Assembly (NCBI GenBank): GCA_045616645.1
Contig: JAZLHD010000179.1
Coordinates: 5,633 to 69,632, forward strand
Source of the DNA: Paludibacteraceae bacterium
GTDB taxonomy: Bacteria; Bacteroidota; Bacteroidia; Bacteroidales; Paludibacteraceae
Reading direction: 5' to 3'
Length of the DNA: 64,000 nt
The notes beneath the pieces are model-generated. The model was not told the DNA's origin. It did no database searches and saw only the letters and a list, made by a program, of their open reading frames with translations. This document shows positions 1 to 56,409 of this stretch, piece by piece. A program made the translations under genes and the position numbers. Every line of letters begins with the position of its first letter. Within the stretch, counting starts at the first letter, position 1.

Positions 1-258
1 TTAGGAACAAGCGGTAAACGCAGGTGGTTCTCTATCACCCCCATCTGACTGAGGACCGTCTTGATACCACTGGGATTACCTTCGATAAATAAGTATTTGA
101 CTAAGTCCGCGTAGTGGTCTTGAAGTGCTTGGTCAGCGTTATGCACTATCTGTCCAAACGCCTCCGGATAAGCATTGGAGGCAACGGAGATAAGTCCGTC
201 CGCACCGGCTGCCATCAGCTCGGCTGCGAGGTTGTCGTCACCACTGAATATTTTTAGT
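1..258 (-). pseudogene. dapA: dapA 3' portion (C-terminal part of 4-hydroxy-tetrahydrodipicolinate synthase). It is out of frame with the 5' portion and continues past the window start.
   Basis: Manual translation of minus-strand codons 248->3 gives FSGDDNLAAELMAAGADGLISVASNAYPEAFGQIVHNADQALQDHYADLVKYLFIEGNPSGIKTVLSQMGVIENHLRLPLVP, a typical DapA C-terminus. The frame is offset by 1 nt from ORF 259..837. A TAG at 279-281 blocks upstream extension in this frame. Confidence 0.85.
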
Positions 259-837
259 TTAGAGTGTAGAGAAGCCGTCTAGTTTAATAGTTGAAAGTTT
301 TATGAGTTTTTTGATTTGTTTGATATTACCGGAGGCTTCTTTGATACCCATAATCTTGTCGGGATAGGCCTCATAGATACGCATCACCGTCTCAGGCAAG
401 AGGTTCACGCCCGTGCGCCCGGGCACGTTATATAAGATAATAGGTACAGGACTAACCTTCGCTATCGCGGAGAAATGTTGAAACAACCCCTCTTGAGAAG
501 GTTTGTTGTAGTAAGGGCAAACGCTCAAAATGGCTGAGCAATACTTGCTGAGTGCCGATTGTTGATTGTTGATTCTATTGATAAGCGCTTGAGTGTTGTT
601 CCCCCCAACGCCAAGGACGAGGGGTAGACGACCCTTTACCTTACGAATAATGAACTGCCATACGTTCAGTTTCTCCGGTTCAGTCATCGTCGCGGCTTCC
701 GCTGTGGTGCCAAGAACAACGAGAAAATCAACGTGCCCGGATAGTTGAATATCGAGCAATTTGTCTAGTCCTTCATAATCCACCGAGCCATCCGCGTGGA
801 AAGGAGTAATAAGGGCAGTGCCGAGACCGTGTATCAT
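259..837 (-). CDS. dapA: 4-hydroxy-tetrahydrodipicolinate synthase, N-terminal 192 aa, ending prematurely inside a heptamer repeat cassette
   Basis: The ORF contains TALITPF, LGTTAE, YNVPGRTG and the active-site region GIKEASGN. It terminates at CTC TAA (259-264) within the repeat instead of continuing to the SGDD motif. Confidence 0.9.
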   Translation of the reverse strand: MIHGLGTALITPFHADGSVDYEGLDKLLDIQLSGHVDFLVVLGTTAEAATMTEPEKLNVWQFIIRKVKGRLPLVLGVGGNNTQALINRINNQQSALSKYCSAILSVCPYYNKPSQEGLFQHFSAIAKVSPVPIILYNVPGRTGVNLLPETVMRIYEAYPDKIMGIKEASGNIKQIKKLIKLSTIKLDGFSTL

Positions 838-875
838 AGGCGTTTAGTTGTTTAGTTGTTTAGACGTTTAGGCGT

Positions 876-4922
<4,047 letters not shown>

Positions 4923-10600: not shown

Positions 10601-11177
10601 TGTGAATATCCTCGTACTCGATACGGAGGTTTATTCGAATACGGGTGGTCAGGCATCCAAATCGACGCCTCTGGGTGCTATTGCTAAGTTTGCTGCCATG
10701 GGTAAGCGCGTGCGTAAGAAAGACTTAGGTATGATTGCTACCACGTATGGTTATGTTTATGTTGCTCAAGTGGCGATGGGTGCGGACCAAGCACAGACAC
10801 TGAAAGCCATCCGCGAAGCAGAGGCTTATCCCGGACCATCGCTTATCATCGCTTATGCTCCTTGTATCAACCATGGTTTGAAAGCGGGTATGGGTAAGTC
10901 GCAAGAAGAGGAGGCAAAAGCTGTGGCTTGTGGTTACTGGCACTTGTGGCGGTATAATCCACAATTAGAAGTTGAGGGTAAGAACCCCTTCACCTTGGAT
11001 AGCAAAGAACCTCAATGGGAGCAGTTTGAAGACTTCCTTAAGGGCGAAGTGCGCTTTGCCAGTGTGATGAAACAATATCCTAACGAGGCAGCCGAACTCT
11101 TCCAAGCCGCACAAGATAACGCTAAGTGGCGCTATCGCAGTTACTTGAGAATGCTTGCCACCGATTGGACCAAATAA
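7635..11177 (+). CDS. nifJ: pyruvate:ferredoxin (flavodoxin) oxidoreductase
   Basis: 1180-aa ORF. N-terminus GNTAAAHIAYMFTEVAAIYPITPSS, two ferredoxin-like motifs (CIECNKCAYVCPH, CLGCGNCVDVCP) and a TPP region GGDGASYDIGYGGLDH. Confidence 0.97.
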   Translation: MKEKKFLTCDGNTAAAHIAYMFTEVAAIYPITPSSPMAENVDEWAAGGRQNMFGEQVLVQEMQSEGGAAGAVHGSLAAGALTTTFTASQGLLLMIPNMYKIAGELIPTVFHVSARTLASHVLCIFGDHQDVMACRQTGFAMLAEGSVQEVMDLAGVAHLSTIKSRVPFLNFFDGFRTSHEYQKVEVVDMEDLRPLVDMEALNEFRQRALSPMRPVMRGMAENPDVFFTHRESCNTYYDKVADIVSDYMNEISKITGRTYRPFTYYGAPDAESMVIAMGSVCECLKEVIDYEAANGKKLGMINVHLYRPFSLKYLQEALPKSVKRICVLDRTKEPGANGEPLYLDVKDALQELGLTHIEVVGGRYGLGSNDTTPAQMLAVYENLNLPQPKNHFTVGINDDVTFTSLPVGEEIAMGDKSLFQAKFYGLGADGTVGANKNSVKIIGEGTDKYCQAYFSYDSKKSGGFTCSHLRFGDEPIRSTYLVTTPNFVACHVQAYLKMYDVTRGLQKGGTFLLNTIWSGDELKQNLPDKVKKYFAENDIRCYYINATKIAQEIGLGNRTNTILQSAFFRITEVIPVEKAVEEMKHFILKSYGKKGEDVVNKNYAAVDRGGEYHLLDIDPAWKNIEVKEESGVAGDPAFIANVVRPINAQAGDLLPVSSFKGIEDGTWPSGTAKYEKRGVSAFVPVWNADNCIECNKCAYVCPHACIRPFVLDEQEKQGFEAATREMKAPAALKGMHFRMQVGVMDCLGCGNCVDVCPGNPKLGKALTMVPLEGQEEEAKNWDYCVNNVKSKQDLIDIQSNVKNSQFATPLFEFSGACSGCGETPYLKLISQLFGDREIAANATGCTSIYSGSVPSTPYTTNEKGQGPAWSNSLFEDFCEYGLGMQIAHRKIKERLARLMTKAQDCTCCSEELKAMFREWLENKNSAEVTKRLYEPMVAAMTACGCDTCKQILQYKDHIVKRSQWIIGGDGASYDIGYGGLDHVIASGEDVNILVLDTEVYSNTGGQASKSTPLGAIAKFAAMGKRVRKKDLGMIATTYGYVYVAQVAMGADQAQTLKAIREAEAYPGPSLIIAYAPCINHGLKAGMGKSQEEEAKAVACGYWHLWRYNPQLEVEGKNPFTLDSKEPQWEQFEDFLKGEVRFASVMKQYPNEAAELFQAAQDNAKWRYRSYLRMLATDWTK

Positions 11178-11214
11178 TCACTAAACAATAAGCAATAATC
11201 AATAATCAATATTA
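11173..11214. repeat. degenerate heptamer tandem repeat AATAATC x6 bridging the nifJ stop and the next gene's ATG
   Basis: Units aataatc/actaaac/aataagc/aataatc/aataatc/aatatta read off at 7-nt spacing. The same unit recurs at 12433-12456 and 62774-62787, each time at a stop codon. Confidence 0.85.
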
Positions 11215-12437
11215 TGAAACGCTATCTTATTTTGGCTGTTTTAGCAGCAGTGGTAATGACGGGTTGTAAGAATCCTGCCAAGTCCGGTTTCCCACAATTA
11301 GACGAATGGGCAAAATATGTATATGAGGTTAAAACCTCTATCATTGGTTATCCGTGTACTCAATATGTTGCTCTCCAAGAGTATTATGAGTGGTACACAG
11401 CGAATAAATTAGGAACCGTTGCGTTTAACAACGTGGGTGATCCTTTTGCTTCTGAGGGAGGAATCTTTCCTACGAGTTCGACCACTTTTGAGCGTGAAGT
11501 ATTAGATTGGTTTGCTCCGTACTACGGCTACGAACAGGGGAAGTACTGGGGATTGGTAAGTAATAGCGGTACGGACGGTAATAACCATGGAATCTATTTT
11601 GGCGTCAATTATCTCTATGGCAAGACGGGACAAATGCCGATCTTCTATGTTTCGGACGAAGCACACTATTCCAATATGCGCTTAGCTGATTTGCAAAACT
11701 TGGATCTATGTCTCATTCCGTCCGACACAATGGGTCGCATGATTCCTGAAGAGTTAGAGAAACGCATCAATCCTAATCGTCCGTGCCTCATCGTGTATGC
11801 GATGGGCTCTACTTTGAAGGGGGCTATTGACGACCAAGCGGCTTTGAATGCGGTCTTGGCTAAGTTCCCAAAGATGGAAGTCTATCGTCACGTGGATGCC
11901 GCTTTGTTCGGTGGATACCTGCCCTTTACGGAATATAAAGATTTGCTTAATCAAGAGAAGATGGGATACCAATCCATCGCTATCAGTGCCCATAAATTCT
12001 TTGGTTCGGACGAACCCGGAGGATTATTCTTCACTTCCAAAGAGGTTTATGATGGACAGACACGTTATGATATCCCCTATCTAAATCAAAACATGAAGAT
12101 GATTAACTGTTCTCGCTCAACGCAAGCTCCGCTTAAGTTTTGGTGGCTCATTCATAAAGTAGGTGCTGATTGTTGGACAGAGCAAGCGAAGGCTATTTTG
12201 GAGGAGACTGCTTATTTTGATGCTAAACTGAATGAGATAGGGTATCCGCATTGGATTAATGATTTGAGTAACACGATTGTGTTGAAACGTCCAAATGAGA
12301 AGTTAATGAAGAAATATACTCTAGCCGCGGGTTATGATGACAAGATGGGTGGTGAAGTGTGCCACTTAGTCGTAATGCAACACGTGGACAAGAAATTAAT
12401 CAATCAGTTCGTTTACGACCTCCAAAATCTCCAATAA
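11214..12437 (+). CDS. PLP-dependent group II decarboxylase (histidine decarboxylase-like) with a lipoprotein signal peptide
   Basis: MKRYLILAVLAAVVMTGC lipobox. IGYPC..NNVGDPF, SNSGTDGNNHG and the PLP-lysine motif ISAHKFFG. Confidence 0.75.
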   Translation: MKRYLILAVLAAVVMTGCKNPAKSGFPQLDEWAKYVYEVKTSIIGYPCTQYVALQEYYEWYTANKLGTVAFNNVGDPFASEGGIFPTSSTTFEREVLDWFAPYYGYEQGKYWGLVSNSGTDGNNHGIYFGVNYLYGKTGQMPIFYVSDEAHYSNMRLADLQNLDLCLIPSDTMGRMIPEELEKRINPNRPCLIVYAMGSTLKGAIDDQAALNAVLAKFPKMEVYRHVDAALFGGYLPFTEYKDLLNQEKMGYQSIAISAHKFFGSDEPGGLFFTSKEVYDGQTRYDIPYLNQNMKMINCSRSTQAPLKFWWLIHKVGADCWTEQAKAILEETAYFDAKLNEIGYPHWINDLSNTIVLKRPNEKLMKKYTLAAGYDDKMGGEVCHLVVMQHVDKKLINQFVYDLQNLQ

Positions 12438-12454
12438 TCAATAATCAATCTTCA

Positions 12455-13933
12455 ATGCACAACATCCAAGCTGAGGCTTTTGACTGCCTTTTATGTTTCT
12501 CTGCACCGTGTAATAGTGCTTGTCCGAAGGGTTTGCATCCTGCGCGTGGCGTTCGTGCCATCCGTTTTGGTAATGCCGATTTAGCCGGACATTGGCTCAC
12601 CGATGCGTGTGCCGATTGCGATGCTCCTTGCGAGAAAGCGTGTATCCACCCCGACCAACCTATCCGTATACGAGAGATGGCAAAACAGGTGAATACGAAT
12701 ACTCTAAACTCTAAACTCTCCACTCTAAACTCAATAGATTTATCTATTGATTTCTGCGGTATCCATTGTGAGAACCCGTTCTTTCTCGCTTCGTCGGCTA
12801 TCGCCACGAACTACGAGATGATAGCGCGTGCCTTTGAGATGGGGTGGGGTGGCGTGTATTACAAGACCATCACGGACATTAAGATAGAGGAAGTTAGTCC
12901 TCGCTTTGATGCTATCAAGGATTTGAATAGAAGTTTTACGGGGTTCCGAAACATGGAACAACTCAGCGAGCAATCGCCTGAGGAGAACTTCGATATCATC
13001 AAACGACTCAAGCAAAACTATCCAACGAAGATTGTCGTGGCTTCCATTATGGGACAGACCGATGATTCGTGGGAGACGTTAGCCAAACAGGCTGAGGAGG
13101 CCGGAGCGGATATGCTCGAACTGAACTTCTCTTGCCCGCAGATGAAGACGCGTGGTTTAGGCTCCGACATAGGACAGAATCCCGAATTGGTGGCTTTCTA
13201 TACCACGTTTGTTAAACGGGCGGTATCGATTCCTGTCATTGCAAAGATGACTCCGAATATCACTTCGATGGTTCCCGTTGCCATGGCAGCTACCTTTGCC
13301 GGAGCAGATGCGATCTCAGCTATTAACACCATTAAGTCCGTCACGATGTCTCAAGCCAGTATGGTAAGTGGCAAACGAACGGTGAGTGGATATTCCGGCA
13401 ATGCGGTCAAACCGATTGCACTCAAACATATTCTGGATATGAGCAAGAACCCGATGCTGCAAATCTCGGGCAAACAACTGCAATTGAGTGGTATAGGCGG
13501 CATTGAGACCTGGCATGATGCGTTGGAGTTTATTCAACTCGGCTGCCAAAATGTGCAAGTCTGCACGGCGGTTATGCAATATGGCTATCGCTTGATAGAG
13601 GACCTCAAATTGGGCTTACAAAACTATATGGCGACTAACCATGTCAAATGCTTGCAAGACCTCGTAGGTTCGGAGTTGCACACGTTTGTGGCTCCCTCTC
13701 GTTTGGATCGTAAGACGCTGGTTTATCCTAAGTTCTTGCGTGACAAATGTGTCGGCTGCGGCCGCTGCTATGTCGCTTGCCAAGATGCCGGTCACCAAGC
13801 TATCGAGTTTGATTGGCAGACGCGTCAACCCAAACTCAATGGACATAAATGTGTAGGCTGTCACCTCTGTCGCTTCGTCTGTCAACAAGAGGCGATAGGT
13901 GATACCAATCGTATTCCCAAACCACAAAAATAA
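12455..13933 (+). CDS. dihydropyrimidine dehydrogenase PreA-like flavoprotein. It fuses a DPD-type N-terminal Fe-S segment with a C-terminal 2x[4Fe-4S] domain.
   Basis: N-terminal CLLCFSAPCNSACPKG resembles the DPD N-terminal cluster motif. DHODH/PreA-like core (FCGIHCENPFFLASS, LELNFSCPQM, SGIGGIETW). C-terminal CVGCGRCYVACQ and CVGCHLCRFVCQ. The start is moved to the ATG at 12455, because the track start overlaps the upstream gene. Confidence 0.8.
   Translation: MHNIQAEAFDCLLCFSAPCNSACPKGLHPARGVRAIRFGNADLAGHWLTDACADCDAPCEKACIHPDQPIRIREMAKQVNTNTLNSKLSTLNSIDLSIDFCGIHCENPFFLASSAIATNYEMIARAFEMGWGGVYYKTITDIKIEEVSPRFDAIKDLNRSFTGFRNMEQLSEQSPEENFDIIKRLKQNYPTKIVVASIMGQTDDSWETLAKQAEEAGADMLELNFSCPQMKTRGLGSDIGQNPELVAFYTTFVKRAVSIPVIAKMTPNITSMVPVAMAATFAGADAISAINTIKSVTMSQASMVSGKRTVSGYSGNAVKPIALKHILDMSKNPMLQISGKQLQLSGIGGIETWHDALEFIQLGCQNVQVCTAVMQYGYRLIEDLKLGLQNYMATNHVKCLQDLVGSELHTFVAPSRLDRKTLVYPKFLRDKCVGCGRCYVACQDAGHQAIEFDWQTRQPKLNGHKCVGCHLCRFVCQQEAIGDTNRIPKPQK
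12702..12736. repeat. heptamer cassette CTCTAAA x5 (ctctaaa ctctaaa ctctcca ctctaaa ctcaata), in frame in the PreA-like gene
   Basis: Read directly. It encodes [12 protein letters not shown] in the linker between the Fe-S segment and the flavin domain. Confidence 0.9.
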
Positions 13934-13934
13934 G

Positions 13935-15329
13935 ATGCTGAAACGCTGTGTTTTTTATCTAATACTCCTTCTCGGGGTCGGGTTTGTGTCCGCCCAAACG
14001 AAGGTGACGATGGAACAACTCCAACACGATTGGAGTAAGTACCAAGGACAAAGAGTAACGATTACTACACCTCTTATCGTGTGTGGGAAGTTCTACGATT
14101 CGATTATCGTATCTTCCGAACGCTTATACGTTCCGGAAGAACGTGCTGTCGGATTAGGCGATGGCGATTCAACCCAATATTGGTATTGGCGCCACTACAA
14201 CGACTCGCTGCGAATCAAACTACAATGCAAGTCGTCTTTTAGCCTCAACCTCGGGGCAACTATCACGAACCTCACCGCACAGGTGATGGCTCCCCGCACC
14301 CTACAAACCGGTGCCGAACCTAAGTTTAGAAACTACAAACCTTCTAAACTCGCTAAACCAGCTAAACCCGCTAAACAGCCCGCAGGGCGTGCTCTCACTA
14401 TCTGTGCGGCGAACATACAAAACTATTTCGTACATGTGGGCGGTTATGCGACCAAACGGAACACGCCGGCTCAACACCAGTGGCAATGTGAGAAGACCGC
14501 GGCTGCTTTGAAGCGTATTGGGGCGGACATCTATGCTTTATGCGAGTTAGAACAAGGTTCCTCGGCTCCGACGGAACTGACGGCGCGAATGAACGAACTC
14601 TGCCACAAAGACCGCTATACGTTTGTCGTAACCGATACCCTCGATCGCGACACGATCTCGGTAGGCTACATATATAATAAGGAACGCGTGCGCCCGCAAG
14701 GGGACCTGATTTTTGTCTATCCCAACCGAAACAACATCTATGCCCATCGGTTTATGATTCAGGCGTTTGAAGATATCTCGACAGGCAAATCGTTCTATAT
14801 ATCCCTCAATCACCCTCGTTCCAAACGGGGTGATCCTGCCATGGCAAATGCTAAACGTGTAGGTAGTATCAAGCGTGTATTAGCGGCTTTAGACTCGCTC
14901 AAACACAATTCACCCTGCCCTACGGGGGAAGGGATGGAGAAGGGGCTTCCTATTCTCCTATTGGGCGACTACAATGCCTACGGACAAGAAGAATCGCTAC
15001 AAATGCTCGTCAAAGCAGGCTATAAAGATATGGTCATGACGATGGATAGCCTTAACTATTCGTATTCCTACAATGGTGAGTGTGGGTACTTGGATCGCGT
15101 CTTTGCCAATGAATCGATGCAACCGTATATCACCTCTATCCATCCCATCCACTGGAACACGGACTACTACTATTCAGCAGCTTATTGGAGCAAATATAAC
15201 TATAAGAACAACACTCCTCCCAAAGAGAAACAAGCGAATATCTGGAAGTGCGTCTCACCCCAAGCAAAAAAGAATCTCCTTTTCCGCTACTCTGACCACG
15301 ACCCCTTACTTATAACGCTCCACTTCTAA
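13935..15329 (+). CDS. secreted endonuclease/exonuclease/phosphatase family protein, paralog of 3348..4922
   Basis: Signal peptide MLKRCVFYLILLLGVGFVSAQ. EEP motifs (IGADIYALCELEQ, RYSDHDPLLITLHF). The start is moved to the ATG at 13935. Confidence 0.8.
   Translation: MLKRCVFYLILLLGVGFVSAQTKVTMEQLQHDWSKYQGQRVTITTPLIVCGKFYDSIIVSSERLYVPEERAVGLGDGDSTQYWYWRHYNDSLRIKLQCKSSFSLNLGATITNLTAQVMAPRTLQTGAEPKFRNYKPSKLAKPAKPAKQPAGRALTICAANIQNYFVHVGGYATKRNTPAQHQWQCEKTAAALKRIGADIYALCELEQGSSAPTELTARMNELCHKDRYTFVVTDTLDRDTISVGYIYNKERVRPQGDLIFVYPNRNNIYAHRFMIQAFEDISTGKSFYISLNHPRSKRGDPAMANAKRVGSIKRVLAALDSLKHNSPCPTGEGMEKGLPILLLGDYNAYGQEESLQMLVKAGYKDMVMTMDSLNYSYSYNGECGYLDRVFANESMQPYITSIHPIHWNTDYYYSAAYWSKYNYKNNTPPKEKQANIWKCVSPQAKKNLLFRYSDHDPLLITLHF
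14344..14379. repeat. nonamer tandem repeat CTAAACNNG x4, in frame (KLAKPAKPAKQ)
   Basis: ctaaactcg ctaaaccag ctaaacccg ctaaacagc. Confidence 0.85.
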
Positions 15330-16126
15330 TGAAATACGCGGCTACAATCGGTTTCTTCGATGGTGTTCATTTAGGGCACCAATACCTCCTCTCCTGTTTG
15401 AAAGAGGAGGCGGCGAAGCGTGGGTTGCAGTCAGCGATTGTGACCTTTGATGAACACCCTCAACAAGTCTTGCGGGGTGAAGCACCGTTGTTACTTACGA
15501 CTTTTAATGAGCGTATCACGCGATTGAGGTTTACCGGAGTAGATAAGGTAATCAGTTTTGATTTTGATCGCATTCACACCCTGTCAGCGGACGAGTTTGC
15601 ACAACTCCTTCACGATTCCTATGACGTCGATGTCCTCATTATGGGCTATGACCACCGCTTTGGTTGTACCAATCACAAATCACAAATCACCAATCACCAA
15701 TTAGAAATCATCCGTCTTCCCGAACTTCCTTCCAACCAACATGTGTCTTCTACTCAGATACGGCAAGCTCTTTTGAAAGGGGAGATAGTCAAGGCTAACG
15801 AGATGTTAGGTTACGCATATACTTTGATGGGAAAAGTGGTTCATGGCAAAGGGTTGGGACGGACGATTGGTTTTCCGACGGCAAACATTGAGGTAGAAAA
15901 AGATAAACTTATTCCTGCTCCAGGCGTTTATAGCGCCGAATGGAATGATAAAAAAGTCCTCCTCAATATCAACGACACCATCGAGATGTATGTTCCTCAT
16001 TTTGAGGGCGATTTATATGACCAAACCCTCTTTGTCGAACTCATCGCTCGTGTACGAGGGGAAAAACACTTTGATAATTTAGAAGATTTAAAAATACAAA
16101 TACAAAAAGATCTTTTATCATTATGA
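15329..16126 (+). CDS. ribF: bifunctional riboflavin kinase / FMN adenylyltransferase
   Basis: GFFDGVHLGHQ at the N-terminus and the kinase motif GKGLGRTIGFPTANI. At 265 aa it is shorter than I recall typical RibF (~310 aa). Confidence 0.9.
   Translation: MKYAATIGFFDGVHLGHQYLLSCLKEEAAKRGLQSAIVTFDEHPQQVLRGEAPLLLTTFNERITRLRFTGVDKVISFDFDRIHTLSADEFAQLLHDSYDVDVLIMGYDHRFGCTNHKSQITNHQLEIIRLPELPSNQHVSSTQIRQALLKGEIVKANEMLGYAYTLMGKVVHGKGLGRTIGFPTANIEVEKDKLIPAPGVYSAEWNDKKVLLNINDTIEMYVPHFEGDLYDQTLFVELIARVRGEKHFDNLEDLKIQIQKDLLSL
15670..15697. repeat. heptamer cassette (C/A)AATCAC x4 inside ribF
   Basis: caatcac aaatcac aaatcac caatcac encodes TNHKSQITNHQ directly after GYDHRFG. Confidence 0.9.
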
Positions 16127-18849
16127 AATCACCAATCACCAATCACAAATCACAAATCACCAATCACAAATCACAATTCACAATTCTTCTCTTATCCTTT
16201 GTCCTTTGTCCTTTGTCCCTTTTTGCTGCTGTTCGTACTGTAGACGAGGCGGCTGCTCTCGCATCGACGTTTAGGAACGAGACCGTAGTCGGACCTCATA
16301 AAGCACCCACATCGGCGGCTTCGATGCAACTCATTCACCAACGCACGAAACTCCAAAGCGAAGAGCCGGCTTTCTATATCTTTAACACTGCCAACGAGAG
16401 TGGGTATGTTATCGTCAGTGCCGATGACCGCACGGAGGAGATCTTAGGTTATTCCGAGCAAGGTTCCTTGGATTATGCAAATCTCAACCCAAATATGGCG
16501 TTTTGGTTGCGTCTCTTACAAGAGGCTATCTCGGCAACCAACGATACGAACACCTCTGCCAAAGCACCGATGGCAACGACGGCTATCGGTCCACTACTTG
16601 TTAATAAAGAGGGTAAGGAGATAACGTGGTATCAAGAGGCTCCCTATTCTAATCTGTGCCCATTAGATTCGGATAACAAACGCTGTTTGACGGGTTGCGT
16701 GGCTACGGCAGCAGCACAAGTGATGTACAAATGGTGTTACCCCAAACAGGGTATTGGTACCCATTCCTATGAATGGACGAACTCGGCAGGAAAGGAGAAA
16801 ACACTGACGGTTGATTACGGAAACACCACCTACGATTGGGGAAATATGCTCCCTTCCTATTTGTATAAATCCTCTACTTCCAAGCAAAAAACCGCCGTGG
16901 CAACACTCATGTACCATGCCGGTGTGGCTTGTAATATGCAATATTCGTCACAAGGTAGTGGCTCTTTAACGGATCTCATGGCGAACGGATTGGTAGATTA
17001 TTTTGGTTATCAGGTGGATAAGTTTATCACTACCTATTCGTCACGGTATTATCCTTCTGATTTTAAACCGACAGAGTATAAGGTTTCTATTACTAAGTTC
17101 ACCGAGTATTTCAATGCCGACTTAGAGAATGGTTATCCTATCATCATGGGCGGTGAGGATAGCGATGGCGGGCACGAGTTTGTGTGCGATGGACGAGATG
17201 CGCAAGGGAAATTTCATATTAACTGGGGTTGGGAAGGCGATAGCAATGGCTTCTTCTCCTTATCGGCATTAAAGGTAGATGGTTATAACTTTTCCTCGAA
17301 CATCGACGCGATCATCGGTCTGCGCCCGGCTAGCATGGATACGATTCACGTCACTTCCGTTTCGGTCAGTCCTGCTTCTACCACACTGAAAATCAATGAG
17401 CGCAAGCAACTGACGGTAACGATTCAGCCTACGAACGCAACCGACAAAAAAGTATCCTATACTTCTTCCAACCTCGAAGTAGCACAAGTCTCTGAACTCG
17501 GTGTCGTTCGTGCGGTGGGTGCAGGTAAGGCGAAAATAACGGTTACAACCAGTGATGGAGGGTTAACTGCGGTAAGCAATATCACCGTTACCAATGAGTA
17601 TGTCCCTTCGGATATTTTTGAGTTAGTGACTGATGCCTCGTCCCTTCAAGAGGGCGATGACATCATCATGGCAGCCACTTATAGCAATGTCCATTATTGC
17701 TTAACCAACTCCATGCATGCTACAACCAACACCAACTATGCCGACTGCGAACAAGTGCAGATTGTGGATAATACCATCACGATAGAAGACAATTCGAATA
17801 TCGCAATCTACAAGTTGGGTATTCAAGATGGAGCTTGGACGCTAATCAATGCAGATGGAAAGAAATTAGGTGCCTTGGGTGCCAAGAAACTGAGCTTTGA
17901 TTTGGGTTCGGTAACGTGGACACTGGACACCAAAAACAATAACACCACCATTGCGAACACCAACACTTCCTATGGTCGTATCTTGTACAATAACAATAAT
18001 AACAATCCTCGTTTCAGTATCTATACTTCTAACACCTCTAACACGATGTTGTTACCGCAAGTTTATGCGCGTAAAAGAAATCAGCCGGTAGAGGTGGTTA
18101 AAGTGACGGGGATAGAGTTAGGTCAGACTTCCGCACAGATGCTCGTTGACGAAGAGATTTTCCTCTATTATGCTGTCAAACCGGTAGCGGCAACGAACCA
18201 AGCGGTGATGTGGACTTCGTCTAATACGAAGGTGGCTGTCGTGGATCCTTCTCACCATTCGCTGGAGGATGAAAAGACCGTTTCTATTAAAGCCATCGCT
18301 GAGGGAGAGGCTACGATTACGGCAAAGACCCTGGATGGAGGCTTTGTAGCTACTTGCGTGATTACCGTCACCGAACAACCTATTGTGCCGACGGATACTA
18401 CTTTTATTATGGCTTCGGAGGCGAAAACGATTGCTATGCAGTTACCTGCAGGCGATCAAACGACAGACTTCTATGGAGTCAAGGGATATGTCACGGTCAA
18501 AAACTCTGTCGAATATCAGGGCTTTTGGTTGGACGATGAGCCGACTGCTAAAGAGACTTTCCAAGGCTTCCAATGCGCTATGCCGGATGACCACCTCTAC
18601 TTACAAATAGGAGAGTACGTGTGCGTCTATGGGTATCTCATGAACTATAACAACGAGAAGGCGCAGATTAAGAATGGTACGGTTGAGGTCTTAGATATAC
18701 CCGTTCCGCAAGGTTTATTGGATCCCTCTGCCTATCCGCCTTTCAGCCCATCTGCCTCTCAGCCGATCATGAAAGTTTTGGAGCATGGTCAGATGCTCTT
18801 CCTCCGTGCTGCAAAGAAGTACAACGTCTTAGGTTGCCCGATAAAGTAA
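16123..18849 (+). CDS. secreted C10-family (streptopain-like) cysteine peptidase with Big_2 Ig-like domains
   Basis: Catalytic-Cys context CLTGCVATAAAQVMYKW and His context GGHEFVCDG. Two Big_2-like segments (VTSVSVSP...ITVTN; VTGIELG...ITVTE). ATGA overlap with ribF. Confidence 0.85.
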   Translation: MKSPITNHKSQITNHKSQFTILLLSFVLCPLSLFAAVRTVDEAAALASTFRNETVVGPHKAPTSAASMQLIHQRTKLQSEEPAFYIFNTANESGYVIVSADDRTEEILGYSEQGSLDYANLNPNMAFWLRLLQEAISATNDTNTSAKAPMATTAIGPLLVNKEGKEITWYQEAPYSNLCPLDSDNKRCLTGCVATAAAQVMYKWCYPKQGIGTHSYEWTNSAGKEKTLTVDYGNTTYDWGNMLPSYLYKSSTSKQKTAVATLMYHAGVACNMQYSSQGSGSLTDLMANGLVDYFGYQVDKFITTYSSRYYPSDFKPTEYKVSITKFTEYFNADLENGYPIIMGGEDSDGGHEFVCDGRDAQGKFHINWGWEGDSNGFFSLSALKVDGYNFSSNIDAIIGLRPASMDTIHVTSVSVSPASTTLKINERKQLTVTIQPTNATDKKVSYTSSNLEVAQVSELGVVRAVGAGKAKITVTTSDGGLTAVSNITVTNEYVPSDIFELVTDASSLQEGDDIIMAATYSNVHYCLTNSMHATTNTNYADCEQVQIVDNTITIEDNSNIAIYKLGIQDGAWTLINADGKKLGALGAKKLSFDLGSVTWTLDTKNNNTTIANTNTSYGRILYNNNNNNPRFSIYTSNTSNTMLLPQVYARKRNQPVEVVKVTGIELGQTSAQMLVDEEIFLYYAVKPVAATNQAVMWTSSNTKVAVVDPSHHSLEDEKTVSIKAIAEGEATITAKTLDGGFVATCVITVTEQPIVPTDTTFIMASEAKTIAMQLPAGDQTTDFYGVKGYVTVKNSVEYQGFWLDDEPTAKETFQGFQCAMPDDHLYLQIGEYVCVYGYLMNYNNEKAQIKNGTVEVLDIPVPQGLLDPSAYPPFSPSASQPIMKVLEHGQMLFLRAAKKYNVLGCPIK
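16126..16181. repeat. heptamer tract (C/A)AATCAC x8 between the ATG and the hydrophobic core of the C10 peptidase signal peptide
   Basis: Eight consecutive 7-nt units are counted from 16126. A second heptamer CCTTTGT x3 at 16196-16216 encodes part of the hydrophobic core. Confidence 0.9.
18725..18764. repeat. octamer cassette (NNNNNGCC x5, reverse orientation of GGCTGAGA) in the C-terminal linker of the C10 peptidase
   Basis: cctctgcc tatccgcc tttcagcc catctgcc tctcagcc encodes PSAYPPFSPSASQP. Confidence 0.85.
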
Positions 18850-18898
18850 GGTTTGGGTAAGTTTTGGTAAATCCTTGTCAATCCCCCGCTTAGGCTAT

Positions 18899-18931
18899 GG
18901 TGCTATGTGGGTGCTATGTTAGTGGTATGTT
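18899..18931. repeat. 11-mer tandem repeat GGTGCTATGTN x3 in the convergent intergenic region
   Basis: ggtgctatgtg ggtgctatgtt agtggtatgtt. An adjacent 10-mer pair gtttgggtaa gttttggtaa lies at 18852-18871. Confidence 0.8.
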
Positions 18932-18934
18932 ACT

Positions 18935-21601
18935 TTAATCGCAGAGGGGAGCGAAGGGGCAGGAAGTGCATTTATTGTAAGTGTCTTCCGTACAAGGGAA
19001 GGGGTTTTCGGGATGGCGTATCTCTTCAATCAGTTTCTTTACATAACCCAGAAACTCGTCTCTGATTTCCTCTACCTTCACAGACTCTTGCCCCTTCTGA
19101 TGTACTGCCGTCTCGGCTCCTTGCGCCAGCGACCGTACCCCATAGATGTGCGGTTCGCCCTGTCCATAAAGGATAGCATAGAGAATCGTCTGCAAAGCGT
19201 ACCCATTGCGCTTGCTGTCCGTCGGGTCAAAGAGCGAAGCTATCGAAGCGAACTCTGTTTCCGACCCGCCCGTCTTGTAATCGACTATTCTGATAGGCAG
19301 AGAGGCGGAAAGGCTGATAGGCTGAGGGGAATCGACTCGGTCGATGGTGCCTTTGAGGGTGACGATAGTGCCATCGTCCAACGTAAGCTCCATTCGACGC
19401 GGCTGCTCAGTTGCGATATATTGGAAAGGTGCTAAAGCAAGGTCGTGTTCGAGAATAAGACGGGCGTATTCCCTCAGTAACGTCGAAAGTAAGTCTTCAC
19501 CCTTCGGCAACGACTGTAACATCTTATTCACATCCTCCTTCGTCACCTCCTTCCCCACAAACGGCTCGTAACAGTTCTGCAAGATAAGATGCAGTTTCGT
19601 ACCTAACTCGCGAGGATCAATCTCCTCCGTCACTTCCTCCGGCTCTTGCAAACCACGGATATATTGCCAATAATATAGTTTCGGACAACGAAGGTACGTG
19701 TTTAAGCCCGAAGGGCTAAATGAGTTGAGAGTGGAGAGTGTAGAGTTTAGAGTAGTTTTATAGTTGAGAGTTGAGAGTGGAGAGGCAGAAAGGCTGATAG
19801 GCTGAGAGGCAGAAAGGCTGAGAGGCTGAGAGGCGGAAAGGTGGATGATGGGGTGCTTAAACTGGTATTGCAACTGATAGAGGTAACGACTGGGTTCACC
19901 CGAGTGCTGCTCATCGGTTCGGGTATTGGAGAGCAACCACACATCCTTGGCATAACTAATCATCCGATAGAAGTTATAAGCAAAAATAGCGTCCTTGCGC
20001 TCCGACGTAGGCAATGCTGCCTTGCAACGGAAAGAGTAGGGAATAAAACTATTAGCAATACTGTTCCCGGGATAGATATCATCATTAAAACTCGTGATAA
20101 TCAAATGCTCAAAGTCCAACGCACGCGTCTCTAATACACCCATAATCTGTAAGCCCTCAAGAGGTTCGCCCCTATATGCTATCGTTTCAGTTTGGAGCAA
20201 AGCCCCTACCAAGCCTCCCCCCGAAGGGGAGGATGTGTTAGGCTGAGAGGCGGAAAGGCTGAGAGGCTGAGAGGCGATGTATTTATCAATCCGATTGAGG
20301 ACCGTTTGGATCTTATAGACGGCTTCGGAGGCATCTTCGGGCAAGTGGTTCAGTATCTCGCGCCAGCGTTGGTCATCCTCGGAGAAGATACAAGACAAAT
20401 ACTCGTCTTTCTCGAAATACGAAACAGGAACATAGATGAGGTTCTGCTTGACCATCGCTTCTTGAATGCTCGCACAAGCCTCGGCACTCAGCCGTTGGAT
20501 ATACGGGTGCGACAAAACCGACTTCACATCCTTGTAATAAAACCCATTCTCCGTTCGACGACGATAAAGGTCCACTATAATCTGAATAAGTGCAAACACC
20601 GGTGTCGCTACCAACGGATAACCTGCCGTGACGTTGATCTTATCTATGTCTTCGGGTAAGGTGTGCAACAAAGGCAGTAACAATCGCTCATCGGGCATCA
20701 CAACTGCCGTCTTGGTCAATGGTAAGGGCCTTTCTAACTCGCTTAAGATACGATGTACCTCCTGCGCCTCGCCTACCGTAGAGGTTAGTTCTACCCAGTG
20801 TATCTCAGGAAAATGAACCTCACTCTGAGGCACTGTAAAACGAGAGTGGAAGAGTTTTTGGTTGTGCTCCATAAACAGAGACGAACGGTTGTCTTTATCC
20901 GTCACCCATGGATGTGAATAATCAAAATAGAAGTCGGCTCTGCCTTGTTCTTGCAAGAGAACCATCAATCGTTCCTCACTCTGCGTTAAGGCATTGAACC
21001 CGATAAAAACAAACTGCTGGTCGGGGTGCTCATCAAGCCAAGCCACTTGTTCCGCTTCCAACGCTGTAATCACCTCGCGATGAAGCATTCCATCGTAAGC
21101 CAGCCCCTCGCGTCGTAACTCGTCTTGCAGACGTTGGTAGATAATATCCAATGGCGGATAAGGAATGAAAGGAGCTTGTCCCTCGGTTTGGAAAGAGGCT
21201 TCTATATCGTGTGCCTCGCGGATATTAAGCAAAAAGCCAATAGGGTTATCTACTAAGTGATTGTCTATCTCATTAAAATCCCCAATCATCATCTTTCCCC
21301 AGAAAAGGAAAGTATCTAAATCTTCCTCCGTCAGTCCTTGTTCTCGTCTTATCTCGTTATGGATGCGGTAAACGCGCAAAAGTAAGTCTATCGGGTCTGC
21401 TAATTGGGTATTGGTGAACTGATAGAAACAGTCATTGATAGTCAGAATCGTTGGTGAAAGAGTCGGTTTGCCGCACGCTATTCCGAGGTCTCTGCGAAAG
21501 AAAAGACCTGCCCGCTGGTTGGGGAAAACAAACGTGTAAGAGGATAACTTATCTCCTACGTTTTGGGCGAAGAGCCTTGCCAAGTTTTGTAAATAACTCA
21601 T
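18935..21601 (-). CDS. PD-(D/E)XK nuclease family protein (AddB/RecB-like nuclease with a C-terminal Cys cluster)
   Basis: C-terminal GTIDRVD...RIVDYKTGG...QTILYAILYG nuclease motifs and CTEDTYNKCTSCPFAPLC. The start is set at MSYLQNLARLF (ATG 21599-21601). The track start at 21643 extends further into the antiporter gene. Confidence 0.75.
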   Translation of the reverse strand: MSYLQNLARLFAQNVGDKLSSYTFVFPNQRAGLFFRRDLGIACGKPTLSPTILTINDCFYQFTNTQLADPIDLLLRVYRIHNEIRREQGLTEEDLDTFLFWGKMMIGDFNEIDNHLVDNPIGFLLNIREAHDIEASFQTEGQAPFIPYPPLDIIYQRLQDELRREGLAYDGMLHREVITALEAEQVAWLDEHPDQQFVFIGFNALTQSEERLMVLLQEQGRADFYFDYSHPWVTDKDNRSSLFMEHNQKLFHSRFTVPQSEVHFPEIHWVELTSTVGEAQEVHRILSELERPLPLTKTAVVMPDERLLLPLLHTLPEDIDKINVTAGYPLVATPVFALIQIIVDLYRRRTENGFYYKDVKSVLSHPYIQRLSAEACASIQEAMVKQNLIYVPVSYFEKDEYLSCIFSEDDQRWREILNHLPEDASEAVYKIQTVLNRIDKYIASQPLSLSASQPNTSSPSGGGLVGALLQTETIAYRGEPLEGLQIMGVLETRALDFEHLIITSFNDDIYPGNSIANSFIPYSFRCKAALPTSERKDAIFAYNFYRMISYAKDVWLLSNTRTDEQHSGEPSRYLYQLQYQFKHPIIHLSASQPLSLSASQPISLSASPLSTLNYKTTLNSTLSTLNSFSPSGLNTYLRCPKLYYWQYIRGLQEPEEVTEEIDPRELGTKLHLILQNCYEPFVGKEVTKEDVNKMLQSLPKGEDLLSTLLREYARLILEHDLALAPFQYIATEQPRRMELTLDDGTIVTLKGTIDRVDSPQPISLSASLPIRIVDYKTGGSETEFASIASLFDPTDSKRNGYALQTILYAILYGQGEPHIYGVRSLAQGAETAVHQKGQESVKVEEIRDEFLGYVKKLIEEIRHPENPFPCTEDTYNKCTSCPFAPLCD
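19296..19327. repeat. octamer cassette GGCNGANA x4 inside the nuclease core of the AddB-like gene
   Basis: ggcagaga ggcggaaa ggctgata ggctgagg. It encodes QPISLSASLP between IDRVD and RIVDYK. Confidence 0.9.
19725..19847. repeat. composite array: heptamer family (TTGAGAG/TTTAGAG, 19725-19784) abutting octamer family (GGCTGAGA x8, 19784-19847)
   Basis: Units were read off base by base. It encodes SASQPLSLSASQPISLSASPLSTLNYKTTLNSTLSTLNS in frame. Confidence 0.9.
20200..20272. repeat. 38-nt palindromic element (20200-20237) followed by octamer cassette GGCTGAGA x4 (20241-20272), in frame in the AddB-like gene
   Basis: The reverse complement of 20200-20237 is cacatcctccccttcggggggaggcttggtaggggctt. 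It matches 32490-32527 at 36/38 positions. Confidence 0.9.
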
Positions 21602-23432
21602 ATATTGTCTGCTTAACGGTCGTAACCACGCGCCATGTACCACTGGCTTGCGGAATATCCATCAATAACCGGTCGGGTATATCGCCTCCGATAATCTGCT
21701 CGGGATAGATGAGCATCGTACTATGGCTTGCCGCTTGTTGGGTCAGGATATCGGGAATACGCGTGAACAACGGGTTATAACTCGGTGTCGATTTGCGGGA
21801 AGAGATAAGCACTAACATATCATTATCCTCCAAGTCCTGAATCGTCTTACGCGTGTCCTGCCACTCGTTGATGGTGCGATAAGAGGCAGCCAAGTATTTG
21901 CCCGGACGGTTACAGAGGGCACGTAAGATCATTTGCGTTTGCTCGGTGGCGTAGAACACCACTTTGGCACCAATCTGACTACTCAAACGGCGCAACTGAC
22001 CGAAACAGGAGATGAAGTCGTGCTCTTTCTCGGCGTAAGGTGGAACGGCAATAAGCATTCTGTCAATCGTGTTGAGTGGCTGATTCTCATGGTAGATAGC
22101 AATCGATTTAGAGGTGTGTTCCACCATCGTTTCCACTTCTTTCCAGTCTGCACACTCCACTATCTCGGTTTCGTGCAAGGAGGAAAGGTTACTCAGTTCC
22201 TTGAGTTCTTGATGCAAGTCCTCGCCTACCGATCCCATCAACCAGTCGTCTAAGACACGTTCGCTCTCTAATCGGGCATCCTCTTGTAAGGACAACCGCT
22301 TAGCCGCATATTCGGTGGCGAAAGAAGCCGTTGTACAAAGTACAAGAATCATCAAAATAACGCCATTTAATATCGCGTCGTCAAACAGTCCCATCTGATA
22401 GACAATCGTTACAATAGCTAATGTGCCGGCAGCGGTGGCGTGACTAAGACCGAAGATAAGTTGACGCTCGTTTGCCTGTAAATGGAATAATCCCTGTACA
22501 CAGGCGGCAGCGAGCCATTTGCCTACTAACTTAGTGACAATCATCACGGTAGCTATTATCGCTAACCAGCCCCACGAACCTACGGCTTGCAGGTTGAGCA
22601 TCAGTCCCACTTCAATCAGGAACACGGGCACAAACATACTATTGCCCACGAACGTGATGTGATTCATCAGTTGTGAGAGGTTGGGTATCAACCTATTCAG
22701 CGCTACCCCGCAAAGGAATGCACCGAGTACACCACTCAGTCTTGCCCAAGTGCATAATAAGGCGGATAGAACCATTAAGGCAATCACTAAAATAAAGTTC
22801 GTCGTTGTCTCCCAACGGAACTTAAAACACGTTCGAACAAGCCAAGGGAATCCGCCTAAGATAATAGCAATCACGCCCACTACTTTGCCTGCCCAAATAA
22901 GAAGTGAGATAGGTTCCATCGCTCCCGTCTGCATCTTTGCTTGCACACCGGCTAACACCAATAACGAGAGCGTGAGTGCAATCATCGTTCCCCCTACCGT
23001 GATGTTCGAGGCGGCACTTTTCTGCAAACCGTAACGCCGAACGATAGGGTAGGTCATCAATGTGTGGCTACCAAACATCGCACCCAACAAAAGTCCTACA
23101 ACAGGACTCAATCCCAATAACCTTGAGGATAGATATCCCAATCCCAATGGGAAAAAGAACGTGAGCAAACCAAACACAATCGCTTTGCCGCGTTGTTGAC
23201 TGAAATCGTTAATGTCAATCTCTACCCCTGCTTGGAACATGATATAGAGCATACCCAATTGTCCAAACACTTGGATAGCCGGTGTGTCCGCTAAGATATT
23301 CAAACCGCACGGACCCAATCCCACTCCCACTAAGATAAATCCGATAATAGCGGGAATATGAATCTTGTGACAAATCAGAGGGACGATAAAAATCAGCCCC
23401 AACACAATCATAAGTGGAATCAGTGTTTGCAT
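21549..23432 (-). CDS. cation:proton antiporter (CPA family Na+/H+ exchanger) with a C-terminal soluble domain
   Basis: About 12 predicted TM segments with GQLGMLYIMFQAGVEID, typical of Na_H_exchanger proteins. 13-nt overlap with the murG stop. Confidence 0.8.
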   Translation of the reverse strand: MQTLIPLMIVLGLIFIVPLICHKIHIPAIIGFILVGVGLGPCGLNILADTPAIQVFGQLGMLYIMFQAGVEIDINDFSQQRGKAIVFGLLTFFFPLGLGYLSSRLLGLSPVVGLLLGAMFGSHTLMTYPIVRRYGLQKSAASNITVGGTMIALTLSLLVLAGVQAKMQTGAMEPISLLIWAGKVVGVIAIILGGFPWLVRTCFKFRWETTTNFILVIALMVLSALLCTWARLSGVLGAFLCGVALNRLIPNLSQLMNHITFVGNSMFVPVFLIEVGLMLNLQAVGSWGWLAIIATVMIVTKLVGKWLAAACVQGLFHLQANERQLIFGLSHATAAGTLAIVTIVYQMGLFDDAILNGVILMILVLCTTASFATEYAAKRLSLQEDARLESERVLDDWLMGSVGEDLHQELKELSNLSSLHETEIVECADWKEVETMVEHTSKSIAIYHENQPLNTIDRMLIAVPPYAEKEHDFISCFGQLRRLSSQIGAKVVFYATEQTQMILRALCNRPGKYLAASYRTINEWQDTRKTIQDLEDNDMLVLISSRKSTPSYNPLFTRIPDILTQQAASHSTMLIYPEQIIGGDIPDRLLMDIPQASGTWRVVTTVKQTIYELFTKLGKALRPKRRR

Positions 23433-28417: not shown

Positions 28418-28445
28418 AAGTTGAAAGTTGAAAGTTGAAAGTTGA
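28418..28445. repeat. heptamer tandem repeat AAGTTGA x4 filling the mraY-murE intergenic gap
   Basis: aagttga x4, perfect. The same unit (agttgaaagtt) also ends the dapA cassette at 290-299. Confidence 0.9.
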
Positions 28446-28459
28446 AAGAAGTTGTATAG

Positions 28460-32082: not shown

Positions 32083-33075
32083 CTAAATTTTCTCTGCTAT
32101 TCTCAGTTTTGCCGACCGACTTCTCGGATTGCGTTCCACTTCCTGCTTATCCGCCATCAACCCTTTTTCAATTACCTTAAACGGTGTTAACGCGTTGCCA
32201 TAAAAATCTTTCTCTATCTCTCCCGTCAAGTTCCCCGACCTTAAAAAGTTCTTCACTATCCTATCCTCCAACGAGTGGTAGGTCAGTACCACAAGTCTTC
32301 CTCCGGGTGCTAACAAATCCCGCGCAGCACAAAGCATTGTCTTCAGAGCTCCTAATTCATCATTTACCTCTATTCGTAACGCTTGGAACACCAGCGTTAA
32401 CATCTTCTTCTCCATAGGATTCGCTTCCTCCGCTTTCTTTCCTATCAGTGCTTCAACTAACTCTTCAATCCGTTGTATCCCTCCTTCTTCACATCCTCCC
32501 CTTTGGGGGGAGGCTTGGTGGGGGCTTCCTGTCGCTTGTTTAATCTTCTTCGCCAACGCCCTACTATTCTTCAACTCGCCGTACAGGTACAGCACTTTCG
32601 CCAAATCCTCTTCGCTATACGTATTCACTATATCCGCTGCGGTTTTGCCGCCTTCGCGGTTCATTCGCATGTCGAGAGGACCGTCAAACCGAAAACTAAA
32701 TCCTCTTTCCGCTTGGTCAAAGTGGTGAAAACTAACCCCAAGATCCGCGAGTAGTCCATCAATATGATCCACACCGTAATAATCCATAAAGTTCTTGAGG
32801 TATCGGAAATTACTGTGTACAAACTGCCACTGCTCGTCTTTTACCACCTCCGGCCGATGAACTTTTGCATTTTCGTAGGCCTCAATATCCTGATCAAACG
32901 AATATAACTTTCCTTTCCGCCTCTCCGCCTCTCCGCCTCTCAGCCTTTCCAGTATCGCTGCCGAATGTCCCCCTCCTCCGAACGTCACATCCACATAGAT
33001 GCCGTTAGGCCTGATGTTCAGTCCCTTTATTGTCTGCTCCAACATCGCGGGTATGTGATACACGTCATTCTTCAT
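32083..33075 (-). CDS. rsmH: 16S rRNA (cytosine1402-N4)-methyltransferase
   Basis: YHIPAMLEQ..., DVTFGGGGHS, DLGVSFHHFD and LTYHSLEDRIVKNF motifs. At 330 aa it carries two extra low-complexity segments encoded by repeat elements. Confidence 0.95.
   Translation of the reverse strand: MKNDVYHIPAMLEQTIKGLNIRPNGIYVDVTFGGGGHSAAILERLRGGEAERRKGKLYSFDQDIEAYENAKVHRPEVVKDEQWQFVHSNFRYLKNFMDYYGVDHIDGLLADLGVSFHHFDQAERGFSFRFDGPLDMRMNREGGKTAADIVNTYSEEDLAKVLYLYGELKNSRALAKKIKQATGSPHQASPQRGGCEEGGIQRIEELVEALIGKKAEEANPMEKKMLTLVFQALRIEVNDELGALKTMLCAARDLLAPGGRLVVLTYHSLEDRIVKNFLRSGNLTGEIEKDFYGNALTPFKVIEKGLMADKQEVERNPRSRSAKLRIAEKI
32490..32527. repeat. 38-nt palindromic element (cacatCCTCCCCtttgGGGGGAGGcttggtgggggctt) inside rsmH, antisense to the gene
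   Basis: Hairpin CCTCCCC/GGGGAGG. 36/38 identity to the reverse complement of 20200-20237. A related copy at 62797-62831 is intergenic. Confidence 0.9.
32914..32945. repeat. octamer cassette (tttccgcc tctccgcc tctccgcc tctcagcc) inside rsmH
   Basis: It encodes RGGEAERRKG between GGGHSAAILERL and KLYSFDQD. Confidence 0.9.
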
Positions 33076-36003: not shown

Positions 36004-36050
36004 TTCTTCAATAATAAATTAACCATTTAAAACATTAATCATTTACAAAC

Positions 36051-39545: not shown

Positions 39546-39583
39546 ATTCGTTCAACTTGTTCAACCGTTAAACTTGTAAATAT

Positions 39584-55491: not shown

Positions 55492-55665
55492 ATCAGCCAT
55501 CAACCAACGTAGCACTTCGTAGGATGTACGTAGGATGCGTGTAGTATTAAAAAAAACGATAAAAATGGAATCATCCACTTATCTTTACGAGAGTTTTTGA
55601 CGAAGGGATTATAATGTTGCCTCCCGAAAAGTAGACACAGAAGGTAGATTTTATTTCTCTTTTAG

Positions 55666-55704
55666 GCGGTAAAAATCCAGTGAAGCGATTTTACCGCTTT
55701 TTTT
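55666..55704 (+). terminator. rho-independent terminator
   Basis: gcggtaaaaatc (55666-55677) pairs with gattttaccgc (55687-55697), followed by T7. Confidence 0.8.
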
Positions 55705-55803
55705 GTGCTGTAATCCCTCGCCATCTGTGAGAGATAAAAATACTCAAAAAACCTTAAAAATAGTTGCAAAATAAAAAAAATGACATTTTTTTCATGTAAA
55801 TTA

Positions 55804-55834
55804 TTGCATATATCGTAAAAAAGTATTACCTTTG
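55804..55834 (+). promoter_or_regulatory. sigma-A type promoter for the nucleotidyltransferase gene (-33 TTG 55804-55806, -7 TACCTTTG 55827-55834)
   Basis: 20-nt spacing and the ttgcatatat context. Confidence 0.6.
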
Positions 55835-55894
55835 TGCGAATTTTTATTACCACGCACTCTTGCGCGAGTGGGGTGAATAGTATAAAAAAATAAC

Positions 55895-56305: not shown

Positions 56306-56409
56306 TTAACCCAAAATATTAACCAATAAAAATTTACTTTTCGCTTGCGCGAGTGGGGGTGAGAGTAAAAATATTATGGTCACGAAATAACTAATATCTT
56401 TAATTTATT

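Follow-up and report, generated by a model that had tools for sequence, protein, structure and literature searches.

A heptanucleotide tract in the signal-peptide coding region of a C10 protease gene from a Paludibacteraceae bacterium: a probable tolerated expansion among lineage-wide tandem arrays

The leader-peptide coding region of the opa genes of Neisseria carries repeats of the pentamer CTCTT. Phase variation of opa is listed in PMC11868660, and in Haemophilus influenzae heptamer repeats are found both upstream of genes, as with (TGAAAGA)n at hmw1A and hmw2A, and within an open reading frame (ORF), as with (AACAACC)n in a gene for a TonB-dependent receptor (PMC2651432). A class of long simple sequence repeats (SSRs) with units of 5-11 nucleotides (nt), heptanucleotides being the commonest, was described by Mrazek, Guo and Shah (2007), as summarised in PMC4679880. 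It includes heptamer arrays of cyanobacteria and the TAACTGA arrays (MacGregor 2015), which lie just upstream of start codons in Beggiatoaceae, Cyanobacteria and a few Bacteroidetes, Paludibacter propionicigenes among them (PMC4679880). The tandem repeats of Borgs, according to the abstract of PMC9879509, create disordered protein regions, evolve rapidly, form recently and arise independently. The subject here is a tract of heptamers directly behind the start codon of a secreted cysteine protease gene (peptidase family C10), found in a 64,000-nt stretch from a Paludibacteraceae bacterium (assembly GCA_045616645.1, contig JAZLHD010000179.1, positions 5,633 to 69,632), hereafter called the window. 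Its GC content is 44.5% and its nearest relatives are metagenome-assembled genomes of Paludibacteraceae from animal guts. An initial annotation, made from the sequence alone, had proposed that the tract is an opa-like phase-variation switch.

The tract is probably a heptanucleotide microsatellite whose in-frame expansion lengthened the n-region of the signal peptide, a part that is cleaved off and tolerates changes of length, and not a dedicated switch. We place it among the 7-8-nt tandem arrays that are spread through the Paludibacteraceae lineage, and it would have expanded in situ, starting from two units behind the start codon that are still seen, as AAATCAA CAATCAA, in the closest genome available (locus L005). 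A net gain of six units (42 nt, 14 codons) would keep the reading frame, lengthening the polar, Lys- and His-containing n-region from ~2-6 to ~18 residues and the signal peptide from ~21 to 35 amino acids (aa). Since signal peptidase would remove the segment, and n-regions tolerate changes of length and composition, such an expansion would be tolerated and nearly neutral. Single-unit changes would yield null alleles as by-products, at a rate limited by the interrupted pattern of the units. We infer both slippage as the mechanism and the near-neutrality of the expansion; we see no indication that this locus evolved to be an on/off switch.

The start of the protease gene is set out in Table 1. 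Tandem Repeats Finder (TRF) read the heptamers at 16126-16183 with a period of 7 (8.3 copies, 90% matches, score 88) and slightly better with a period of 21 (2.7 copies, 94% matches, score 98); the CCTTTGT units (16195-16218) gave period 7, 3.4 copies and 100% matches. Two variants of the first unit are interleaved, in the order A C C A A C A and then the degenerate copy, and the longest stretch of perfect period 7 is 20 nt or 2.9 units. The tract is beyond chance. With at most one mismatch AATCACMAATCAC was found 10 times against 0.20 expected, a count reached in none of 100 shuffles, and all 10 matches are confined to this tract and its counterpart in ribF (15668-15710); a strict array scan returned four period-7 and two period-8 arrays against 0.0 in 10 Markov shuffles. 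The tract codes for KSPITNH KSQITNH KSQFT in a translation that begins MKSPITNHKSQITNHKSQFTILLLSFVLCPLSLFAAV, and is contained in the longest G-free run of the window (16126-16200, 75 nt). Immediately upstream the stop codon of ribF (TGA, 16124-16126) overlaps the protease ATG at 16123 in a 4-nt ATGA, an overlap kept in all seven syntenic genomes (the window, L001-L005 and L007). Most of what had been annotated here holds: the 14-nt gap and the three CCTTTGT units at 16196-16216 are as described, the translation agrees with the placing of the repeats in the n-region and part of the h-region, the ATGA coupling to ribF is borne out by the conserved overlap, and both caveats, that unit variants are mixed and that the same unit family recurs inside ribF, were well founded. 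The eight (C/A)AATCAC heptamers reported behind the ATG are correct for seven, the eighth reading AATTCAC.

The product of the gene passes the curated Pfam cutoffs for Peptidase_C10 (202.1 bits against 26) and Inhibitor_I69 (81.4 bits against 25), with E-values of 1.4e-59 and 6.8e-23 respectively and 3.3e-27 for Big_2. Its translation contains a GCVATA Cys motif and a GGHEFV His motif, which we take to be the catalytic motifs of Peptidase C10 (streptopain family). The N-terminus, MKSPITNHKSQITNHKSQ-FTILLLSFVLCPLSLFA followed by AV, is predicted to be a Sec signal peptide of the signal peptidase I (SPase I) type, having a basic n-region with three Lys, a strongly hydrophobic h-region (maximum 9-mer hydropathy 3.16) and small residues before the cut. 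The SPase I cleavage site is likely to lie between LFA and AV; this junction aligns with that between A and A(V/P)R(T/S) in the orthologs, and the Inhibitor_I69 domain begins at residue 35. The ATGAAA start is kept in all syntenic orthologs. A start 3' of the tract was considered and rejected, as the sole in-frame candidate, a TTG at codon 31, would leave no signal peptide.

Tandem arrays are by no means confined to this gene. TRF found about 20 arrays with 7-8-nt units in the window, plus a few with units of 9 or 16 nt, in unit families that include (A/C)AATCAC, CTCTAAA, CCTCTCAG and CCTTTGT. They sit in ligA, rsmH, ribF, dapA, a DHODH-like gene, a nuclease gene and junctions of the dcw cluster, and no enrichment in surface genes was seen in the window; an array adjoins 7 of its 37 gene starts, that of the protease included. 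Arrays of this class were present in 35 of the 88 loci fetched, at up to 0.9 per kb in Paludibacteraceae. Because the arrays occur genome-wide, essential genes included, a tolerated expansion is likelier than a dedicated switch, and by our reasoning high slippage rates in the arrays of essential genes would impose a heavy load. Coding arrays of the CTCTAAA type (e.g. 12701-12732 and 2145-2174) have a variant unit, CTCTCCA, CTCTCAA or CTCCAAA, wherever TAA would be in frame, and the variant recurs every third unit, which indicates that coding arrays are under selection for an open frame after their formation. Of 38 coding arrays with 7-8-nt units, 32 are also poor in G on the sense strand (window, L001-L024 and L079; p=2e-5, orthologous arrays not being independent), that of rsmH (32912-32950) being the exception within the window. 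We attribute this to avoidance of stop codons, since of these only TAA can be formed by G-free sequence; among arrays 5' of genes the bias (12 versus 5, p=0.14) is not significant. An enrichment of arrays in the signal peptides of the protease family was looked for and not upheld, as ~3 independent origins in 28 genes stand against a rough expectation of 0.5-2.

The array in ribF lies in the same family as the protease tract, the two aligning in register at 85% over 52 nt. RibF, which scores 190.4 bits against a cutoff of 184.35 for TIGR00083, has its linker between the FAD-synthetase and riboflavin-kinase domains coded by an array in all seven syntenic species, always in frame, with units that vary (AATCAC, CAATCTT, ACTCTAA, CACCAAA) and protein lengths from 265 to 279 aa. 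The peptide TNHKSQITNH of the protease n-region recurs as linker in this cytoplasmic protein, which argues for filler and not for a targeting motif. That the protease tract is a copy of the ribF array was rejected, an identical run of 30 nt not being significant with two-state units and several possible registers. A tail, AATTAG-AATCAT, common to the protease start of L002 and the ribF arrays may be native sequence. The window RibF leaves the final ~30 positions of the Pfam FAD_syn profile unmatched. With the ATGA overlap conserved in all seven syntenic genomes, a housekeeping flavin gene and a secreted protease gene appear as a stable, translationally coupled pair.

Six relative genomes share both the ribF-protease synteny and the ATGA overlap. 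In the closest of these, L005 (87% aa identity, and 86.4% nt identity over 5.8 kb), the protease begins ATG AAATCAA CAATCAA AATTATCC... (MKSTIKIILLSFVLCPLSLFA followed by AV), that is with a seed of two units and no array, and alignment to the window opens one clean gap in the tract, of 42 nt. Over the 5.8 kb there are five indels, each divisible by 3 in length, of which three lie in or beside arrays; the one in the protease tract is the only multiple of 7. The ribF array, the three CCTTTGT units and the 9-mer at 14344 are unchanged in length. The arrays at 14344-14376 and 18726-18768 are at or beside in-frame indels of 12 and 15 nt. L005 has exactly the same CCTTTGT x3 array and L002 nearly the same; in L003 and L004 it has been expanded or re-homogenised, and the h-regions of the protease there are CCTTTAT or CCTTTGT arrays. 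Two AATCAC units stand at the protease start of L002 and none at those of L001 and L007, and AATTGTC arrays occur in the signal peptide of a more distant homologue in L014 and L079. The signal peptide is 35 aa long in the window and 19-26 aa in the syntenic orthologs, with an n-region of ~17-18 versus 1-6 aa.

Comparison of L003 (2120-3160) with L004 (2140-3160), at 85-89% nt identity, revealed different units at the same three sites: in the spacer that precedes ribF, in the RibF linker and in the signal peptide. The spacer arrays look expanded from adjacent native sequence. The signal-peptide arrays are of equal length but consist of CCTTTAT in L003 or L004 and of CCTTTGT in its counterpart, a homogenisation that indicates concerted evolution of units; in L003 the array, with 9.6 copies, codes for most of the signal peptide. 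These patterns imply that arrays arise in place and that turnover of their units proceeds at the pace of species divergence. Homologues were retrieved with peptides far downstream of the tract, so that OFF alleles would have been recovered too. All 28 protease homologues in the fetched loci have an in-frame ATG and a hydrophobic signal peptide, including the six whose signal peptide bears an array; with the window added, seven of seven array-bearing genes are ON.

A frameshift in dapA (1-837, minus strand) falls exactly at the heptamer pair CTCTACA CTCTAAA (271-258). Deletion of one 7-nt unit gives an uninterrupted DapA of 276 aa up to the window edge, and the two halves joined by hand (279 aa, not the deletion product) align end to end with solved DapA structures (E=1e-56). 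The split is either a recent gain of one unit or an assembly error at the array. A generic scan for genes rejoined by gain or loss of one unit flagged mostly ordinary gene junctions, and homology backs dapA only.

Could the tract nevertheless act as a switch? The proposal is that slipped-strand mispairing alters the number of heptamers, turns the protease off reversibly and at high frequency, and is selected as bet-hedging. The frame logic of the initial annotation, by which a one-unit change cuts the protease off, is confirmed by the computed products: gain or loss of one or two units truncates the protein at 37-52 aa and a change of three stays in frame (901 or 915 aa). As in a contingency locus, a unit that is not a multiple of 3 lies inside an ORF, here directly after the ATG; the product is a secreted protease, the tract differs from L005 by exactly six units, the dapA frameshift might be a sign of single-unit events, and heptanucleotide SSRs within ORFs have been proposed as phase-variable in H. 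influenzae (PMC2651432). Against this, a long tract of identical units is absent (two variants mixed, 90% matches by TRF, no perfect stretch beyond 20 nt), and the arrays are not concentrated in surface or host-interaction genes, housekeeping genes carrying them as well. High slippage in the like arrays of essential genes would, we reason, be very costly, three arrays shared with the 86%-identical L005 have kept their length, and every homologue is ON (7/7 with arrays, 28/28 in total) although OFF alleles were retrievable. We regard an opa-like contingency locus as unlikely. The resemblance of the protease tract to the opa leader repeat is in frame arithmetic only. The anatomy and arithmetic of the annotated switch stand, the step from a possible frameshift to phase variation finds no support in the tests run, and the impure tract, the arrays in essential genes, the stable lengths and the uniformly ON homologues argue against the switch itself. 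To our knowledge, phase variation in Bacteroidales is otherwise attributed to invertible promoters and methylation. Control by an invertible promoter was rejected here, there being no convincing flanking inverted repeats and only pairs 72-78% complementary within coding sequence. Several observations nonetheless weigh against a tolerated expansion. The protease tract is among the longest arrays of the window and is placed like classical contingency tracts, in a class of gene (secreted protease) typical of phase variation; concerted evolution at equal array length in L003 and L004 implies ongoing turnover of units; and dapA, if its split is real, has been put out of frame by exactly one heptamer, from another array family, so that single-unit out-of-frame states occur. 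Nor was a conspecific sequence found, the best match being at 55% identity in a metagenome scan and 43% in the protein database, and neither ribF nor the protease nor two neighbouring genes were on record in exact look-ups. It is conceivable, if doubtful, that heptamer arrays of the lineage actively gain and lose single units, with dapA as a snapshot, and that the tract flips the protease on and off; the same process would then also build signal peptides and domain linkers in this genome.

Two further explanations give the tract a function at the level of RNA or of the peptide. An unstructured, G-free stretch of 75 nt might keep the initiation region single-stranded or bind an RNA-binding protein, tuning translation of a gene coupled to ribF in a lineage not reliant on Shine-Dalgarno pairing, a role that we think quite unlikely. 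The region from -20 to +70 has a predicted minimum free energy of 0.0 kcal/mol, the least structured of the 37 gene starts in the window, in which this is also the longest G-free run and 7 of the 37 starts adjoin an array, and the placement matches that of the TAACTGA heptamers, which were proposed to act in translation (PMC4679880). Orthologs free of the tract are, however, nearly unstructured too (L005 -1.9, L007 -2.8 and L004 -1.8 kcal/mol), so that an array is not required for an open initiation region; stop-codon avoidance explains the G-poverty of coding arrays, and arrays 5' of genes show no significant bias. A structured RNA element was also discarded: Rfam gave no match with E<=1 for 13000-20000, and over the entire window nothing reached the gathering score. 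Very unlikely, in our judgement, is a functional extension in which the 14 extra residues (2 Lys, 2 His, otherwise polar) alter targeting or the kinetics of export, with an effect like that of extended signal peptide regions. The signal peptide and n-region do exceed those of the syntenic orthologs (35 versus 19-26 aa and ~17 versus 1-6 aa), but the extension is present in the lineage of the window only, its peptide is merely the three-frame reading of the repeat unit, and the same TNHKSQITNH serves as a linker in RibF, as filler would.

Were the tract a true switch, gut Bacteroidales would gain a mode of phase variation based on repeat slippage, and a secreted C10 protease, of a family linked to host interaction, would come under stochastic control; as a candidate switch the tract is weak. 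If it is a tolerated expansion, as we favour, lineage-wide 7-8-nt arrays have been co-opted into coding sequence, as signal peptides, the interdomain linker of ribF and loops of a nuclease. A frame-shifting repeat in 5' coding sequence is then no evidence of phase variation where the whole genome, essential genes included, has such repeats. What deserves notice are the pervasive coding arrays, the array-coded linker of ribF and the signal peptides built from arrays.

Table 1. Coordinates of the protease tract, of other arrays and of the genes that carry them. Positions are those of the window except where a relative locus is named.
Feature	Position	Strand	Details
Secreted cysteine protease gene	16123..18849	+	908 aa; signal peptide, Inhibitor_I69 pro-domain, Peptidase_C10, Big_2 domains
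Protease start region	ATG 16123; units 16126-16181	+	AAATCAC CAATCAC CAATCAC AAATCAC AAATCAC CAATCAC AAATCAC AATTCAC
Signal-peptide coding region	16123..16227	+	35 aa; n-region ~17-18 aa, h-region ~17 aa; from hydropathy and ortholog alignment
AATCAC heptamer tract	16126..16181	+	7 exact (A/C)AATCAC units and 1 degenerate AATTCAC
Flanks of heptamer tract			GATCTTTTATCATTATG and AATTCTTCTCTTATCCTTTGTCC
Spacer	16182..16195	+	AATTCTTCTCTTAT; 14 nt between heptamer tract and CCTTTGT array
CCTTTGT x3 array	16196..16216	+	codes part of h-region (SFVLCPLSL)
8/16-nt array near 3' end of protease gene	18726..18768	+	PSAYPPFSPSASQP; TRF; site of 15-nt indel versus L005
ribF, bifunctional riboflavin kinase/FAD synthetase	15329..16126	+	265 aa; Pfam FAD_syn and Flavokinase
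(A/C)AATCAC-family array in ribF	15668..15710	+	codes interdomain linker TNHKSQITNHQL; TRF period 7, copies 5.7
ribF linker array, L001	2573-2605
ribF linker array, L002	316-345
ribF linker array, L003	2582-2614
ribF linker array, L004	2574-2625
ribF linker array, L005	2575-2609
ribF linker array, L007	2564-2604
Array in dapA	557-574
Array in ligA	2145-2174
Array in DHODH-like gene	12701-12732
Array in rsmH	32912-32950
9-nt array in exo/endonuclease-phosphatase-family gene	14344-14376		CTAAACCCG; codes KLAKPAKPAK
PD-(D/E)XK-family nuclease ORF	18935-21643	-	four arrays at 19290-19325, 19722-19841, 20240-20275
Intercistronic array	837-886		fills gap; ends 0-6 nt from downstream start
Intercistronic array	11173-11211		fills gap; ends 0-6 nt from downstream start
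Intercistronic array	12420-12449		fills gap; ends 0-6 nt from downstream start
Intercistronic or start-abutting array	28418-28448		fills gap; ends 0-6 nt from downstream start; murE-mraY, dcw cluster
Intercistronic or start-abutting array	36018-36052		fills gap; ends 0-6 nt from downstream start
Intercistronic or start-abutting array	39550-39577		fills gap; ends 0-6 nt from downstream start

The arrays of the nuclease ORF are of the octamer CCTCTCAG type and the heptamer CTCTAAA type, cover ~200 nt and code for SLSASQP(L/I) and LSTLNS repeats. A 2-kb region of the window (55491-57499) has no ORF of at least 150 aa and no Rfam or tRNA match. Several short tandem repeats lie in it, together with G-free runs of 47-55 nt at 56288-56342, 57075-57127 and 57454-57500.

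Among the described systems opa shares with the protease tract a repeat that is not a multiple of 3 in the signal-peptide region after the ATG, where the frame in which a surface or secreted protein is read depends on the number of units. In opa the tracts consist of pure repeats, variation is seen from colony to colony and from strain to strain, and OFF alleles are documented; the protease tract, by contrast, is interrupted, all its homologues are ON and like arrays occur in essential genes. The SSRs of H. influenzae have the 7-nt unit in common with it, and those within ORFs vary in unit number between strains, with some alleles truncated. They differ in being pure, with 8-38 copies, and in varying between strains of one species, and H. 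influenzae is not known to carry such arrays throughout its housekeeping genes. Given that heptanucleotide SSRs within ORFs were proposed as phase-variable there, the mechanism would not be new in kind. Borg repeats, compared here by the abstract alone, are alike in that they arise in place and add low-complexity segments to proteins; the units here are 7-8 nt long, so that only multiples of three units or compensating changes preserve the frame.

A search of the literature found no description of such arrays in Paludibacteraceae. Among known kinds the arrays of the window come closest to the class of long SSRs with units of 5-11 nt: they exceed the length expected by chance, are many per genome and recur in relatives. 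As in that class, the arrays of the window are numerous and short (~3-9 copies of 7-8-nt units), belong to few unit families, often lie a few nt from start codons and occasionally within ORFs in a stop-free orientation, and have no evident link to gene function, essential genes included. With the TAACTGA arrays they have only the placement at start codons in common, as no array of the window has a TAACTGA unit. Where they depart from the known long SSRs is in the large share that is coding, signal peptides and domain linkers among them.

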